Source: Candidatus Levyibacteriota bacterium | GTDB taxonomy: Bacteria; Patescibacteriota; Microgenomatia; Levybacterales; UBA12049 | Assembly: GCA_027334565.1 (NCBI GenBank) | Contig: DAHWUP010000001.1 | Span: 158,726-222,725, forward strand | Length of the DNA: 64,000 nt | Direction: 5' to 3' | Part shown: one piece after another, positions 3,120-31,413 of the stretch | How the letters are laid out: every line of letters begins with the position of its first letter | How positions within the stretch are numbered: position 1 is the first letter of the stretch | The notes under the pieces: generated by a model | What the model was told of the DNA's origin: nothing | The model's database searches: none | What the model saw: only the letters and a program-made list of their open reading frames with translations | Position numbers and translations under genes: made by a program

Positions 3120-4364
3120 TTATGAAGAGAATTCGCTGGCGGTAGCCCTAAATTCGCGGATGGCGGTAACCTTGATCTCCCCGGGAACCGCTTGTGATTT
3201 TGCGACTTCGTCTCTAATTTTTGTGGCCACCACGGTTGTTTGTTCGTCGGTTAGCTTGCCAGGATCGATGATGACCCTAAGCTCTCTTCCGGCTTCAAAT
3301 GCATAAGCATCCTCAACTCCCTCGTGTTTTTTGGCTATTTCTTCCATCTCCGTCAACCGTTTGCCGTATTCTTCCACATCCTCATATCGGGCTCCCGGTC
3401 TTGCACCCGAGATCTGATCCGCAATATGCACTATCACCGACTCTACGGACGTGAACGGTTTATCTTCATGGTGCTCCGCGACGCAATTTACTACCGGTTC
3501 GGGAATGCCGTGTTTCTTAAGAAAATCAACTCCCAAAGTGACATGACTTCCCTCGCCTTCCAAAACTTTCCCGATATCGTGGAACAGACAGCCGACCCGA
3601 ACTATGTTTACGTTTGCTCCAAGTTCTTCGGCGATATGCACCCCGATCTTAACATCTTCTAACGTATGAACTATCAAATTTTGTCCGAATGAGGTTCTGA
3701 ATTTAAATCTCCCCAAAACCGAAAGCATGTCTCTTGAAAGATTGAAAACTCCTGCTTCGTGAGCCAGTTTTTCCCCTTCCTCAAACATAATTTTTTCGAC
3801 TTCCTTTTTGGCCTCTTCAACAATTTCTTCGATCCTAAACGGCTGTATCCTGGTATCTCTGATAAGTTTTTCAAGCGAACGTCGGGCGATTTCCCTTCTT
3901 ACCTGGTCAAATGACGAAAGCCTGATTACCCCTTCTTCATCCAAATCCACATCCACTCCGGTTGCCTGCTCAAAAGCCCTGATATTCCTTCCCTCTTTCC
4001 CGATTATCCTGCCTTTGATTTCTTCATCGGGGATCTTGACCACCGAAACGGTGTATTCCGCAATGAACTTCAAAGCACCGAAACGCATACTGTCCAGAAG
4101 TATTTCCTGAGCATTTTTATCGGAGGTTGATTTTGCCTCATCTTCTCTCTCCTTGATGATCTTGGCAACGGCTTTCGCTTCGTCCATCTCAAGCTGTTCG
4201 AACAACTCTTTTTTTGCCTGTTCTTCGGTCAGGCCTGAAGCGTTCTCCAGTTTTTCGCGATATTTTTCTTTCAGCTCCTCAAGCTTTTGCCTGTCTTGTT
4301 CAAGTTTCTCTTCTCTATCGAGAAGCTTTTTTTCCAGTGCTATTAAATCCTGATTGTTTGCCAT
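3120..4364 (-). CDS. rny: Ribonuclease Y (KH + HD domains), lacking the usual N-terminal membrane anchor
   Basis: It has a coiled-coil N-terminus, a KH motif (IIGKEGRNIRAFE) and an HD domain (LFHDIGK...HH). The N-terminus is hydrophilic (MANNQDLIALEKK). Confidence 0.85.
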   Translation of the reverse strand: MANNQDLIALEKKLLDREEKLEQDRQKLEELKEKYREKLENASGLTEEQAKKELFEQLEMDEAKAVAKIIKEREDEAKSTSDKNAQEILLDSMRFGALKFIAEYTVSVVKIPDEEIKGRIIGKEGRNIRAFEQATGVDVDLDEEGVIRLSSFDQVRREIARRSLEKLIRDTRIQPFRIEEIVEEAKKEVEKIMFEEGEKLAHEAGVFNLSRDMLSVLGRFKFRTSFGQNLIVHTLEDVKIGVHIAEELGANVNIVRVGCLFHDIGKVLEGEGSHVTLGVDFLKKHGIPEPVVNCVAEHHEDKPFTSVESVIVHIADQISGARPGARYEDVEEYGKRLTEMEEIAKKHEGVEDAYAFEAGRELRVIIDPGKLTDEQTTVVATKIRDEVAKSQAVPGEIKVTAIREFRATASEFSS

Positions 4365-16943: not shown

Positions 16944-17104
16944 CGATGAACGGCCGAAACCATAAAAATATAAATCCTAAACCACTCTTTAAGTGCGTTT
17001 AGAATTTACCCGATTATTATATCAAAGCCGGCCAAAAAGAGCAAACTAAATAATAAAATTTGTTAAGGCAATTAAAAAACCTTTAACCCCAAATCAATAA
17101 TTTC

Positions 17105-27378: not shown

Positions 27379-28146
27379 CTAGTCCTTTAAATAAGTCGCT
27401 TTTAACATTTCTAATGAATCTTTCATGAATATAATGTTTTTATTCTTCAAAACCTCATAAGTGTTTAATAAATTTGAAGCACGAATGCTGACACCGCTGA
27501 TGTTTCTGGCCGATTTAACGACGTTTTCAAAATCTTTAGTGGCTTTGGGTGTGACCAGCAACAATTGCGGGTTTTTCCCTTCAAGCGCCAAGCCATTTAG
27601 GGCCTGCGACATGATTTTTGTCTTCGGCTCGAGCTTTTCGTATCCTTTTACAATTTTGATTTCTCCCGCTTTAAGCTTAGCGGTCAAAGCGCTGAAAAGA
27701 GCCGCTTTTCGCATTTTCTGATTCAGTTTAAGGGAATAGTCCCTCGGTTTAGGTCCGAATGCGATACCGCCGCCGACAAAAATCGGAGCCGATTTCGCAC
27801 CGTGTCTGGCCCGTCCGGTTCCTTTTTGTCTGTAAATTTTTCGCGTCGAAATTTTCACTTCTCCTCTTGATTTGGTTTTTACCGTACCCCTTCTCTGGTT
27901 TGATAAATATATTCTTACCGCTTGCGACATCAAAGGGTTGTTAACCTTTGCGTCAAAAATTTCCTTCGGCAGGGTCACCGTTTCGGTCGAATGTCCTCTT
28001 ATGTCGTATACTTTTTGACGAAGTCCGGTTTCTACCAAGGGCGTTTTTGTTACGGAACTTGCCACGGATCTCGCGGGCGTTGATGCCGCCTTTTTAGCGG
28101 ACGGTTTTACTGTTTTACCAACCGGTGATTTTTTAGTTACTGGCAT
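27379..28146 (-). CDS. rplD: 50S ribosomal protein L4 with an N-terminal lysine/alanine-rich extension of about 40 aa
   Basis: L4 core (GTGRARHG...) preceded by an extension rich in K, A, S and T. Confidence 0.9.
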   Translation of the reverse strand: MPVTKKSPVGKTVKPSAKKAASTPARSVASSVTKTPLVETGLRQKVYDIRGHSTETVTLPKEIFDAKVNNPLMSQAVRIYLSNQRRGTVKTKSRGEVKISTRKIYRQKGTGRARHGAKSAPIFVGGGIAFGPKPRDYSLKLNQKMRKAALFSALTAKLKAGEIKIVKGYEKLEPKTKIMSQALNGLALEGKNPQLLLVTPKATKDFENVVKSARNISGVSIRASNLLNTYEVLKNKNIIFMKDSLEMLKATYLKD

Positions 28147-29114
28147 TATTCAACAACCTCCTTATTTACCGTTGTTGCTTCCGAACCATCTGGTTTCGTC
28201 GAAGCTGCCGGTTCGCCTTGCGCTACGTCCTTATTTTCCGCCTGGATATCGGATTGAACAGGTTCCGCATTTTTGGTTTCGGTATCTGATTCCTGATCCG
28301 GCTGGGCAGTTAAAGTCTGAACCGATTCCGGCTCTTTAACCGTTTCTGTTTCATCGTTTACAACCGTTTCATCGGCCGGAATGTCTTTTTGCTCCGGTTC
28401 CGCTTCGGGCTCGCTATATAAAGGTACAAATTTTTTATTTTCTCCTACTTTTTTAACCAGCAGAAGCGAGTTGATTCTACCCGGCACCAAACCCCTAATT
28501 AGCAATACTCCGTCGTTGGTGATATCGATGACCTCCAAATTTTTAACGGTGACCCTATCACTTCCCATTCTTCCTGCCATTTTCTTGCCTCTATACACTC
28601 TTCCAGGTGTAGTGGTTTGACCGATAGAACCGGGAGCTCTTTCGCGATCGGATTGTCCGTGGGTTCTGGGACCGCCCTTAAAATGATATCTTTTCACCCC
28701 ACCGGCCCAACCCTTTCCTTTGGAAACACCGGTAACGTCGATTATGTCACCCGCTGTAAAAATTTCACCAACGGCCACTTCCGTACCCAAAACGGCGCCG
28801 GCAATATCTTCAACCCTGACTTCCTTAAAGTATTTGGGTGAGGGAATGGTCGTTCTTGTTACTGCGGGGTCTGTTTCGGAAGTTTGTTTCGGGGAATTAA
28901 GTGCCTTTTGGACGTGACCGAAAATCGCTTTATTCGTCCTTTTCTTGGCATCCATCCCAAGTTGAATCGAATTGTATCCTTCTTTATCCTGAGTTTTTAT
29001 TTGAGTGATAACATTTCCGGCAACCGTCACCCCGGTCAACGGAACCCTCGTTCCGTCTTGCAGGAATCCCTGTTTTTGATAAGTTTTTTTACCGATAAGT
29101 GCGTTTAATTGCAT
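28146..29114 (-). CDS. rplC: 50S ribosomal protein L3 with an acidic C-terminal extension of about 100 aa (start at MQLNALIGKK)
   Basis: L3 core (GKGWAGGVKR...G.IG). Then the C-terminal region is rich in Glu, Thr, Asp and Gln (EPEAEPEQKDIPADETVVNDETETVKEPE...). RBS GGAAGGA lies before the ATG at 29114. Confidence 0.88.
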   Translation of the reverse strand: MQLNALIGKKTYQKQGFLQDGTRVPLTGVTVAGNVITQIKTQDKEGYNSIQLGMDAKKRTNKAIFGHVQKALNSPKQTSETDPAVTRTTIPSPKYFKEVRVEDIAGAVLGTEVAVGEIFTAGDIIDVTGVSKGKGWAGGVKRYHFKGGPRTHGQSDRERAPGSIGQTTTPGRVYRGKKMAGRMGSDRVTVKNLEVIDITNDGVLLIRGLVPGRINSLLLVKKVGENKKFVPLYSEPEAEPEQKDIPADETVVNDETETVKEPESVQTLTAQPDQESDTETKNAEPVQSDIQAENKDVAQGEPAASTKPDGSEATTVNKEVVE

Positions 29115-29123
29115 GTTTTCCTT

Positions 29124-29160
29124 CCAGACAAACAAAAAGCGACCACACAGAGTCGCTCTT
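29124..29160 (-). terminator. Terminator/attenuator-like hairpin with a U-tract in the rplC leader (minus-strand transcript)
   Basis: On the minus strand the sequence reads AGCGAC-UCUGUGUG-GUCGCU followed by UUUUUGUUUGU. This lies about 10-45 nt upstream of the rplC ATG and downstream of a 7-codon uORF (ATG GAG GTG ATC GAA GCT ACA TAG). Confidence 0.4.
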
Positions 29161-29233
29161 ATCACAAAATTTGTAAAAAGCCTCCTATGTAGCTTCGATC
29201 ACCTCCATTTGCCTGATCATTTTGTTAAAAGTT

Positions 29234-29262
29234 ATTATATAGAAATTCGTGCCTAAATGCAA
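29234..29262 (-). promoter_or_regulatory. Sigma-70-like promoter (TTGCAT-N17-TATAAT) reading toward rplC
   Basis: On the minus strand, TTGCAT spans 29262-29257, the spacer is 17 nt, and TATAAT spans 29239-29234. It lies just past the stop of the inserted ORF and about 115 nt upstream of rplC. Confidence 0.45.
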
Positions 29263-29274
29263 GGGGATGCGGTT

Positions 29275-29820
29275 TTATTCCTGCACGGGTTGCAAGCGTC
29301 CAAGAACGTTGCCGGTAACTTTGGCCGCCTCTTGGCCGGTCCTGGTCTCTTTTAGAAGCGTATGCAATTTGGGAGAGTAAACTCCAACGCCTTCGTCCTT
29401 CATCTGCTGGGTCTGTAAGAGTTCTTTCATGCAGGAGAAGGTTGTAACGTTGTCATCCGAAAAATCGATATCTATCGACAGCCAGCCCAGGAATTTTAAA
29501 CCCTCCCTGGCTATCAAACGGTCTGCCGGTCCGCTCTCCTCTCCTTCAGCCTTCGGAGCAGGTTCGTATTCCATCACACGCTGATAGGCCGGCCTTAATT
29601 CTTCAAGCTTTGGATGTTCACGAAAATTAGAACCTAAACTATAGCGCGCGCCTTTGATTTCCAGCCAACCGCTTTGCCCCGAGTCGATTATAGTTTTCGC
29701 TTCGGGAATCGCCTCTAGTGCATCGAATACCCTTTTTCTAAGGCCTGATACTTGTTCCGGACCCAAAGTACCTTCGGTTTCGTTTTGATGGTCTTCTGTT
29801 GTTTCCGCGGCCGCATCCAT
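29275..29820 (-). CDS. Hypothetical acidic protein of 181 aa, inserted between rpsJ and rplC; no recognisable domain
   Basis: A clean ORF in operon orientation. Local GC is visibly higher than the neighbours (several 60-nt stretches above 55% against roughly 40-45% around it). It has an acidic N-terminus (MDAAAETTEDHQNETEG). No motif recognised. Confidence 0.55.
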   Translation of the reverse strand: MDAAAETTEDHQNETEGTLGPEQVSGLRKRVFDALEAIPEAKTIIDSGQSGWLEIKGARYSLGSNFREHPKLEELRPAYQRVMEYEPAPKAEGEESGPADRLIAREGLKFLGWLSIDIDFSDDNVTTFSCMKELLQTQQMKDEGVGVYSPKLHTLLKETRTGQEAAKVTGNVLGRLQPVQE

Positions 29821-29867
29821 GCATAAATGGTCTCATAATAAGCAAGGCAAGTCAAGCTAAAAGAGGG

Positions 29868-30182
29868 TTACATCTTGATTTCGACGTTAACTCCCGCGGG
29901 GAGTTCAAGGTGGGTTAAGGAATCGATGGTTTTTTCCGTCGGGGAGACGATATCGATCAATCGTTTATGGATTTTTATCTGGAAATGATCCCTGGCATTT
30001 TTATCGATGAACGTGGATTTATTTACCGCATATACGCTGCGCTTTGAAGGAAGAGGTATCGGCCCGACCACTTTGGCACCGGTTCGAATTGCCGTATCAA
30101 GAATTTGTTGACACGTTGAGTCGATCACTCTAGCATCGTAACTTTTTAATTTTACTCTGATTCTTCCTTTTGGCATATGCAA
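29868..30182 (-). CDS. rpsJ: 30S ribosomal protein S10
   Basis: RIRVKLKSYD...LD (the S10 signature); 104 aa. Confidence 0.95.
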   Translation of the reverse strand: MHMPKGRIRVKLKSYDARVIDSTCQQILDTAIRTGAKVVGPIPLPSKRSVYAVNKSTFIDKNARDHFQIKIHKRLIDIVSPTEKTIDSLTHLELPAGVNVEIKM

Positions 30183-30231
30183 TAAATATTAAAGAGCTAA
30201 TGAACATCTTTGGGCAGAAGATAATGAAGAA

Positions 30232-31413
30232 TTAGGCGATTATTTTGTTGATTACGCCTGCTCCGACCGTTTTTCCGCCCTCTCTCACCGCAAATCTAAG
30301 TCCTTCTTCCAAGGCAACGGGCGTGATAAGTTTGACGGTCATCTTAGTGTTATCTCCGGGCATTACCATCTCGACGCCCTGAGGCAAGGTGGATTCACCA
30401 GTAACATCGGTCGTACCGATAAAGAATTGCGGTCTGTATCCCGAGAAGAAAGGTGTGTGCCTACCCCCCTCCTCTTTGGTCAGAATATAAATTTCCGCCT
30501 CAAATTCTTTGTGTGGTGTGATTGAGCCCGGTTTTGCAATGACTTGACCTCTTTCCACATCGGTCTTCTCAACACCCCTAAGTAAGATTCCTACATTGTC
30601 GCCGGCCTGACCTTCTTCAAGGCTCTTTCTGAACATTTCTACGCCGGTAACCACCGACTGTTTGGTCGGTTTGATCCCGACAATTTCGACCGGGTCGTTA
30701 ACCTTGATTTTTCCTCTTGAAATTCTTCCCGTTACGACCGTCCCACGTCCTTTGATCGAAAAAACATCCTCGATCGGCATCAAGAAAGGTTTATCCAGGT
30801 CCCTGACCGGGGTCGGAATATAGGAATCGACCGCGTCCATCAGAGCTTCAATTTGTTTCTCGGCTTCAGGGTCGCCTTCCAGAGCCTTAAGAGCAGAACC
30901 CCTGATGATCGGCACTTCGTTTCCGGGATACTGATATTTTGTAAGAAGTTCTCTTACTTCCATTTCAACCAGGTCCAAAAGCTCCGGATCGGAAACCATA
31001 TCGCATTTGTTAAGGAAAACTACAATTGATGGTACCTGAACTTGGTGGGCAAGGAGTATGTGTTCTCTGGTTTGGGGCATGGGGCCGTCGGGAGCTGAAA
31101 CTACGAGGATAGCGCCGTCCATCTGGGCGGCTCCCGTAATCATGTTCTTAATGTAATCCGCATGGCCCGGTGCATCGATATGAGCATAATGTCTTTTGGC
31201 GGTTTCGTATTCGATGTGGGAAATATTAATAGTAACGCCCCTTGCTTTTTCTTCGGGGGCGTTATCGATGTCCTCGTATTTTTTGGCTTGTGCCATTCCC
31301 TTCTTGGCCAAAACGGTAGCAATAGCCGCCGTTAACGTGGTTTTACCATGGTCTACATGACCGATGGTACCGATATTTACATGTGGTTTATTTCGTACGT
31401 ATTTGTCTGCCAT
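30232..31413 (-). CDS. tuf: Elongation factor Tu
   Basis: [14 protein letters not shown]-like DAPGHADY, and NKCD motifs; 393 aa. Confidence 0.97.

Follow-up and report, generated by a model that had tools for sequence, protein, structure and literature searches.

A conserved promoter, short open reading frame and terminator heading the rplC operon in Microgenomates: a putative ribosome-mediated transcription attenuator

The rplC leader and its parts

The subject of this study is a leader located directly upstream of rplC in a 64,000-nt stretch of DNA from a Candidatus Levyibacteriota bacterium (contig DAHWUP010000001.1), which was analysed as a whole and is referred to below as the window. 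All parts of the leader lie on the minus strand, where the genes follow each other in the order tuf (31413-30232), rpsJ (30176-29868), a 181-aa open reading frame (ORF; 29820-29275), rplC, rplD, rplW, rplB and onward. The 181-aa ORF is lineage-specific, lies between rpsJ and the rplC promoter, and is not part of the leader. It is followed by 160 nt of non-coding DNA that extend to the rplC ATG (29114-29112), and this is the site of the leader.

The leader begins with a predicted sigma-70-type promoter, with its hexamers at the usual separation of 17 +/- 1 nt. The -35 hexamer TTGCAT (29262-29257) and the -10 hexamer TATAAT (29239-29234) are separated by a 17-nt spacer, and the position of the -10 box predicts a transcription start at ~29227-29226. 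An initial annotation of this DNA described the promoter as near-consensus. This is true of the -10 box, which is a perfect TATAAT, but not of TTGCAT, which matches the E. coli consensus TTGACA at 3/6 positions only, and for this reason the site is missing from a generic promoter scan. The pattern TTGCNN-N17-TATAAT occurs 2 times in the 64 kb, compared with 0.23 expected.

The promoter is followed by an 11-codon upstream ORF (uORF) and its stop codon (MIRQMEVIEAT*, 29220-29185), with an AUG 13 nt past the -10 box and no Shine-Dalgarno (SD) sequence. Nested in frame inside it is a 7-codon ORF (MEVIEAT*, ATG GAG GTG ATC GAA GCT ACA TAG, 29208-29185). The uORF also contains an SD-like 10-nt tract, GGAGGUGAUC (29206-29197), which is complementary over its 10 nt to the canonical 3' end of 16S rRNA, and whose GGAGG core ends 14 nt before the stop. 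In minimum free energy folds, a variable middle hairpin, P2 (29180-29161), occupies the interval between the uORF and an intrinsic-terminator hairpin (29160-29135), which was recognized by terminator scan and by covariation, and which consists of the 5' arm AAGAGCGAC, the loop UCUGUGUG and the 3' arm GUCGCUUUU. The terminator scan of the window reports it as a hairpin of the intrinsic-terminator type (10 pairs, 4 G-C, 6-nt loop, UUUUUGUUUGU), and by itself it has a folding energy of -11.5 kcal/mol. The remaining U-rich tract UGUUUGUC (29134-29127; UGUUUGU follows the hairpin), the rplC ribosome binding site (RBS) GGAAGGA (29125-29119) and the rplC ATG complete the leader, with 20 nt between the end of the terminator stem and the ATG. 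The promoter, short ORF, hairpin with U-tract, rplC RBS and ATG listed in the initial annotation are thus all present on the minus strand, and the folding that it proposed as a check shows the leader to be more stable than its shuffles (z = -2.65).

Conservation of the leader across Microgenomates

The leader was compared in 80 genome loci and 80 metagenome loci collected around L3 homologues, labelled here with L-numbers. The L3 relatives assign this uncultivated organism to Microgenomates, as a Levyibacteria-like member of the Candidate Phyla Radiation (CPR). Strict criteria, namely a promoter regular expression (TTG-N16-18-TA[TCA]A[AC]T) and a terminator, were passed by 86 loci, equal to 83 distinct sequences; the TTG, the range of spacer lengths and the presence of the terminator are thus selected for. 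The initial annotation had also suggested looking for the leader in relatives, and it is indeed kept in these 83 distinct genomes or contigs of Microgenomates, where the promoter-uORF-terminator unit stands directly upstream of rplC. Within the limits of the regular expression, which preselected TTG and a 16-18 nt spacer, TTGC is found in 75/83 leaders, a spacer of exactly 17 nt in 81/83 and an exact TATAAT in 76/83. Whatever the length of the gap between rpsJ and rplC, the last 120-150 nt before rplC have a shared anatomy, which consists of TTGC..-N17-TATAAT, an ATG or GTG, a short ORF, and a hairpin that is rich in G+C and runs into a U-tract. A further ~18 CPR-like loci fail one strict criterion, and most of the ~10 that were viewed by eye still show the parts of the unit. 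Leaders are also found across distant Microgenomates orders. The terminator is absent from all Chloroflexota and other outgroup loci of the comparison set, and the distance between rpsJ and rplC is 8-30 nt in most of these outgroups and 128-3439 nt in Microgenomates.

A covariance model built from 23 members of the window's clade has a single hit in each locus, in every case immediately before rplC. In the window it gives one match (29128-29233, 92 bits, E 3e-19), and no further copy of the leader turned up in the 64 kb, either with this model or in a scan with the GGAGGUGAUC motif (2 matches in 64 kb, 0.27 expected). The terminator is separated from the rplC ATG by 1-50 nt in most loci, with no promoter in between.

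The stretch between terminator and start codon varies among relatives. In many of them, such as L012, L023, L037, L094, L097, L099 and L106, the rplC ATG lies 1-12 nt past the terminator U-tract and lacks an SD, so that initiation there must use the U-rich tract or coupling to the leader. In L002, L101, L050, L111, L121 and L150, 70-140 nt of extra sequence is present between the leader terminator and rplC, amounting to 139 nt in L002, the closest relative (L002 3756-3998), and looking repeat-like in some cases (L111). A different G+C-rich conserved spacer of 160-210 nt is present between rpsJ and rplC in Anaerolineae/Aggregatilineales (L054, L057-L059, L061, L062, L069, L074, L077; ~3790-4003). 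It has no terminator and closes with an invariant AGUGGAG immediately upstream of the ATG, in front of which lies an apparently covarying hairpin, and may be an undescribed ribosomal protein (r-protein) leader of another type.

Constraints on the short ORF

The initial annotation had singled out the 7-codon ORF. The ORF is real, but it is probably just the 3' part of the 11-codon uORF, which begins at an in-frame ATG 12 nt upstream (29220). The window's clade comprises 29 distinct leaders, and the outer ATG is present in 29/29 of them, whereas the inner ATG is ACG, CAG, TTG or CTG in close relatives, which rules out the 7-codon ORF as a conserved unit of this clade. The counterpart of the 7-codon ORF in sister clades is their [A/G]UG-GAG-GUG... 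uORF. The uORF has 11 codons in 25 members of the window's clade, 12 codons in 3 and 10 codons in 1, and its internal indels are therefore all multiples of three, while the spacer just downstream of it (24-35 nt) occurs in every phase in the same 29 members.

The position of the uORF relative to the promoter is also constrained. A start codon 5-16 nt past the -10 box that opens a short ORF is found in 83/83 leaders, compared with 20 +/- 3.7 (maximum 33) when the upstream part is shuffled, and the distance from -10 to ATG is 9-16 nt in the window's clade and 7-12 nt in most sister clades. Because of this short distance from the -10 box, and given the inferred start site, the uORF would be leaderless, or preceded by a few nucleotides only, and without an SD. 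The leader thus contains a 5'-proximal short ORF with conserved start, frame and stop, as is typical of leader-peptide attenuators.

The peptide sequence, by contrast, is poorly conserved, and those codons that are conserved coincide with the RNA motifs GGAGGUG(AU) and GCUACAUAG. No run of regulatory codons is present in MIRQMEVIEAT, and family-wide only Val is enriched (16.5%), because of the GUGGUU RNA motif. Amino-acid (Val) sensing was ruled out on both grounds.

In the 54 leaders whose uORF contains GGAGG, the core of this motif ends 14 nt before the stop in 35/54, 11 nt before it in 8/54 and 13 nt before it in 3/54, and this spacing holds across clades with 7- and 11-codon uORFs. The only explanation found for such a quantised distance is that GGAGG would serve as an anchor for the anti-SD. 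GGAGGUG is kept in L029, L106 and L113 although it is 1 nt off frame, and the 11-codon ORF is kept in L015, L094 and L097 without GGAGG, and hence the open frame and the SD-like motif are independent constraints. GGAGG-type SDs precede 8/10 of the genes checked from rplC to rplN; rpsJ and the 181-aa ORF have no SD.

These features of the uORF also bear on the idea that the unit is mainly a trans-acting gene, encoding a ~95-nt small RNA (sRNA), an 11-residue micropeptide, or both, where GGAGGUGAUC could titrate 30S subunits. The unit is compact, has its own promoter and terminator, and carries the 10-nt complement of the anti-SD; trans functions are reported for attenuator-derived sRNAs and leader peptides of Sinorhizobium (PMC7968998). 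However, the peptide is poorly conserved beyond the positions that belong to RNA motifs, each locus has just one copy of the unit, invariably joined to rplC, and a trans role leaves unexplained the bistability of the terminator described below. We regard this explanation as very improbable, and a trans-acting sRNA or micropeptide as possible only as an added role.

Competing pairing of the uORF end and the terminator

The last uORF codons and the stop, GCUACAUAG (29193-29185), together with the following G (29184), are complementary to CUGUGUGGU (29150-29142), which consists of the terminator loop and the first two bases of the 3' arm, and which was recognized by pairing and conservation. These two segments are the 5' and 3' strands of a putative antiterminator. 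In the window's clade the sequence of the terminator loop (CUCUAUGUGG), which is complementary to the uORF end, shows unusual conservation. P2 varies among relatives in both sequence and length. A pseudoknot in which the loop pairing coexists with the terminator was ruled out, as nine consecutive pairs would take up the whole 8-nt loop and two stem positions. In the window's clade the antiterminator thus excludes the terminator, with one of its strands where a ribosome on the uORF would lie, and an intrinsic terminator separates the leader ORF from the first structural gene, as in known attenuators.

The terminator helix is paired in 86% of alignment cells, and its covariation score is reached by 0/500 shuffles. 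It is the only helix returned by unconstrained RNAalifold, which is expected for a local hairpin and has no bearing either way on the alternative helix. For the antiterminator helix, 94.1% of cells are paired in a MAFFT alignment of 23 sequences, compared with 20-55% when the partner is slid. In the covariance-model alignment of 38 distinct sequences, which is fitted to the structure, 92.2% are paired, 5/9 pairs are changed on both sides and 0/500 shuffles reach the observed values. Alignment column 116 is compatible with both its partners throughout. Individual compensatory changes are seen in L107 (CUACA:UGUAG to CUGCA:UGCAG) and in L089 and L092 (UAGGG:CCCU). L094 and L097 use a shifted register, in which the segment just past the stop pairs with the terminator 5' arm and loop, and UUCGAGC:GCUCGAA compared with CUUGAGU:ACUCGAG gives two double compensations, one of them also compensated in the terminator 3' arm. 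The duplex between uORF end and terminator has an energy of -11.3 kcal/mol for cognate pairs, -9.0 for non-cognate pairs and -8.1 for shuffled sequences (p ~1e-6 to 1e-8), and this advantage over the controls is found mainly in the window's clade.

A conserved terminator loop could also be the binding site of a protein. In a mechanism of the E. coli S10/L4 type, excess L4 (or L3), possibly with NusA, would bind P2 and the terminator hairpin, or the conserved loop, and the ORF would be incidental or would serve to clear structure. L3 and L4 are both products of the operon behind this leader, the E. coli S10 leader likewise has a hairpin directly upstream of its terminator hairpin and tolerates much variation (PMC3616713), and a candidate L4 leader is located directly upstream of rplC in Archaeoglobi (PMC7247131). 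Such a mechanism leaves unexplained why every leader (83/83, against ~20 expected) has a start codon at a set spacing from the -10 box, why the ORF keeps to 11 codons and takes up indels in multiples of 3 alone, and why stop region and loop are complementary, with compensatory changes. In addition, there is no match to an Rfam ribosomal leader, and P2, the counterpart of the E. coli hairpin HD, is not conserved in sequence. Control by L4 or L3 as the main mechanism is therefore considered unlikely, and is nonetheless the alternative to which we give the most weight.

Energetics of the switch

In the window, the two folds are near-isoenergetic (antiterminator -23.8, terminator -23.2 kcal/mol), and the equilibrium probability of the terminator, P(terminator), rises from 0.15 in free RNA to 0.91 when the uORF and 12 nt are masked, as they would be by a ribosome. 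The mean values for the 29 clade members are 0.49 free and 0.91 masked. Across all 83 leaders, P(terminator) is 0.52 with the native upstream sequence, compared with 0.87 when the upstream sequence is shuffled (p = 2e-11).

The last comparison bears on an alternative in which nothing is regulated. Here a leaky constitutive terminator or insulator would end the transcript of tuf, rpsJ and, where present, the insert, the promoter would restart transcription, and the ORF and the alternative pairing would be functionless. The terminator scan shows no terminator-like site between rpsJ and the leader on the minus strand, so that upstream transcripts reach the leader hairpin, and in several relatives the terminator is stable at equilibrium whatever the upstream sequence. 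By contrast, the native upstream sequence is a much stronger competitor of the terminator than its shuffles are, the uORF is universal, and the promoter lies upstream of the terminator, so that the unit's own transcripts would be cut, which would be wasteful to conserve in 83 genomes unless termination is conditional. On this evidence, an unregulated terminator is quite improbable.

The position of the competing segment differs between clades. A single antiterminator geometry for the whole family was ruled out, since in other clades the competing segment is mainly in the spacer. The exact switch logic may therefore differ between clades, which share the design and not the exact wiring.

Proposed mechanism of attenuation

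On balance, the leader is probably a clade-wide, ribosome-mediated and uORF-dependent transcription attenuator that heads the rplC...(S10-spc) operon, in which translation of the uORF would mask the antiterminator and favour termination. This reading starts from the parts, their conservation, the constraints on the ORF and the alternative pairing, as observed; the model adds to these the start site, the idea that the uORF is translated, the sign of the switch and the nature of its signal. Because there is no room for a promoter between the terminator and the ATG, all transcription into rplC crosses the terminator, and as the operon is essential, read-through is needed, so that termination must be either conditional or leaky.

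In the proposed sequence of events, RNA would be started by the sigma-70-type promoter, and the 11-codon SD-less ORF, ~6 nt from the 5' end, would be its first feature. The last uORF codons and the stop, GCUACAUAG, would pair with the terminator loop and the start of the 3' arm, 24 nt downstream, to the exclusion of the terminator. If the uORF is empty as RNA polymerase transcribes the terminator, the antiterminator is predicted to form first, because its 3' strand is made before the terminator 3' arm is complete, and polymerase would read through into rplC. A ribosome translating or terminating on the uORF would instead cover the antiterminator strand, allow the terminator to form and cause the transcript to end at the U-tract. 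The tract GGAGGUGAUC, at its fixed 14 nt from the stop, probably holds the ribosome through the anti-SD and prolongs its occupancy of the last codons. The net result would be that translational capacity, i.e. the supply of initiation-competent ribosomes, feeds back negatively on transcription of the r-protein operon, and the leader thus probably tunes r-protein output to how busy ribosomes are. The opposite sign, with translation causing read-through, was ruled out, because a stop located 24-35 nt upstream of the terminator 5' arm is too far away for a terminating ribosome to melt the hairpin.

A more specific version is that the leader directly senses idle ribosomes. Mainly vacant 70S or 30S particles would initiate on the leaderless or near-leaderless uORF, GGAGGUGAUC would hold the ribosome over the antiterminator, and the level of free ribosomes would set the extent of termination. 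We put this version forward tentatively, as possible and still rather doubtful. If true, it would provide ribosome homeostasis without r-protein or rRNA mimicry, conserved across a CPR class in which rpsJ is uncoupled from the S10 operon.

Several points weigh against uORF-dependent attenuation. An AUG with a short leader and no SD may initiate poorly. The antiterminator is mostly conserved sequence, with 1 double-sided change in the MAFFT alignment and 11/500 shuffles reaching its covariation score there, and the stronger covariation figures (92.2%, 5/9, 0/500) come from the alignment fitted to the structure. L008, L010, L012, L019, L025 and L033 keep P(terminator) >0.9 at equilibrium without masking. 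Outside the window's clade, the competitor is mainly in the spacer, and P(terminator) is 0.69 with the uORF masked and 0.93 with the spacer masked. The leader RNA could also be the target of a protein, such as L4, L3 or NusA. Finally, the start site, termination at the U-tract and uORF translation are all predictions from sequence.

The rpsJ-rplC junction and its inserted genes

In the initial annotation, the element was interpreted as an attenuation-type leader that had been rebuilt upstream of rplC after an insertion split the operon. The first half of this interpretation is upheld by the leader's own promoter, its terminator-like hairpin and the exclusive, conserved pairing, but the second is not, as homologous leaders occur in relatives that lack an inserted gene. 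Some relatives have a gap of 128-250 nt that holds the leader only, and the leader is likewise present without any insertion in L007, L010, L015, L088, L092, L094, L096, L104 and L113 (gaps of 143-252 nt), which makes the promoter and the leader older than the insertion. A secondary origin in this genome, restoring expression after the ORF was inserted between rpsJ and rplC, would agree with the presence in the window of the lineage-specific 181-aa ORF downstream of rpsJ. It is contradicted by the homologous leaders of insert-free relatives and of distant Microgenomates orders, and the covariance-model match and the similarity in alignment speak against its repeated arrival by convergence, so that this origin is scarcely credible.

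Longer gaps contain unrelated genes, which encode peptide deformylase (L002, L006), Asp/Glu racemase (L005), an FtsJ-like methyltransferase (L028, L044, L122), a histidine phosphatase (L021, L137), a GNAT acetyltransferase (L082), Fic (L095) or an 866-aa ORF (outside the Pfam scan). The inserted genes are mostly co-oriented, and are placed between rpsJ and the rplC promoter (in the window, 29275-29867). The rpsJ-rplC junction is thus an old operon boundary with its own predicted promoter, which repeatedly accepts unrelated genes lineage by lineage, and the stretch between rpsJ and this promoter is a gene-insertion hot spot in Microgenomates. For the 181-aa ORF of the window, a search among 5.8 billion proteins returned no homologue other than the protein itself, and there was no Pfam match and no match in the 160 related loci; dating of the insertion by homology of this ORF was consequently dropped.

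The proteins encoded just downstream have terminal extensions. L3 is 322 aa long, of which the Pfam match covers residues 103-200 only, and is extended at its C-terminus by an acidic stretch of ~100 aa (window 28146-28450, minus strand), and L4 has a basic, Ala/Ser/Lys/Pro-rich N-terminal extension of ~45 aa (window 28010-28146, minus strand).

Two other upstream regions of the window may be mentioned. The second TTGCNN-N17-TATAAT (17016-17044, minus strand) reads TTGCTC...TTTGATATAAT, has the TG of an extended -10, and precedes infA (IF1, Pfam PF01176; ATG 16925) by ~90 nt. The long 5' untranslated region (UTR) of infA, in which a hairpin of the GGCCG...CGGCC type and a short ORF that overlaps are seen, may be another leader on a translation gene. 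The tuf gene has its own promoter-like site, TTGACG-N17-TATATT (region 31479-31414, minus strand), and a very short 5' UTR without an SD, in which a 4-bp hairpin (AACC/GGUU), a weak one, and then U8 directly precede the ATG.

Comparison with known systems

Little has been described of how r-proteins are balanced in bacteria outside the model phyla, and most E. coli r-protein leaders are restricted to Gammaproteobacteria (PMC3616713). The rplC leader is a compact element that can be defined by a covariance model and that heads the largest r-protein operon in at least 83 Microgenomates genomes or contigs, and its design points to translation of a tiny ORF, rather than r-protein binding, as the regulatory input. 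If true, this would represent a new logic for r-protein feedback, based on the sensing of translational capacity, and would provide a testable regulatory element for unculturable organisms. For genome evolution, the leader offers a correction, in that the rpsJ-rplC junction is an ancient boundary and not a recent disruption. Literature searches returned no description of this leader or of any CPR rplC leader, nor of any cis-regulatory RNA in Candidate Phyla Radiation organisms. A scan of the whole window with 4227 Rfam families at the gathering threshold gave a tRNA as the only match, and matches at E <= 10 in 28900-30300 were at chance level, with nothing at E <= 1 apart from a chance miRNA match, the presence of an S10/L4 model in Rfam 15 being unverified.

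Close parallels in architecture are classical leader-peptide attenuators such as trpL, hisL, pheL and ilvL, which likewise consist of a promoter-proximal short ORF followed by an intrinsic terminator, with an antiterminator whose 5' strand can be reached by a ribosome that has arrived at the ORF end, and in which a ribosome at the stop codon favours the terminator. Unlike these, the rplC leader has no cluster of regulatory codons, and is therefore not an amino-acid-sensing attenuator. In the window's clade it also lacks a 1:2 'protector' helix, so that an untranslated leader should read through and not super-attenuate. Its ORF, which has an SD-like tract inside it, is predicted to have no leader or almost none, and the targets are r-proteins and not biosynthetic enzymes. 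The pyrBI and pyrE attenuators resemble it in that the output is set by the position of the ribosome when polymerase reaches the terminator, and not by an amino acid. By contrast, in pyrBI a close ribosome blocks the terminator and gives read-through, whereas the geometry of the rplC leader predicts the opposite sign.

With the E. coli S10 leader, which acts through L4/NusA attenuation and translational repression, it shares a conditional terminator at the head of an rplC/rplD operon, a hairpin directly upstream of the terminator hairpin and a presumed purpose, namely feedback on r-protein synthesis. The E. coli leader lies upstream of rpsJ, folds into five hairpins, contains no ORF that is translated and occurs in Gammaproteobacteria only (PMC3616713), whereas the rplC leader sits between rpsJ and rplC (with rpsJ following tuf) and has a uORF, and no similarity in sequence or structure between the two was detected in the Rfam scans. 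The Archaeoglobi L4 leader candidate of Eckert and Weinberg (2020) precedes rplC-rplD-rplW-rplB directly (PMC7247131) and is the only described leader in this position; it is an archaeal structured RNA motif from an unrelated lineage, without the uORF-terminator design. The polycysteine uORFs of mycobacteria are similar in that a leaderless short ORF is the first cistron and its translation controls the downstream operon; they sense cysteine through Cys codons and regulate Cys-related genes (bioRxiv 10.1101/834739), whereas the rplC leader has no diagnostic codons and combines its uORF with an intrinsic terminator and a defined antiterminator. Set beside these systems, the rplC leader is a predicted new variant of ribosome-mediated attenuation, acting on the r-protein genes of CPR bacteria, and is ancestral to the clade.

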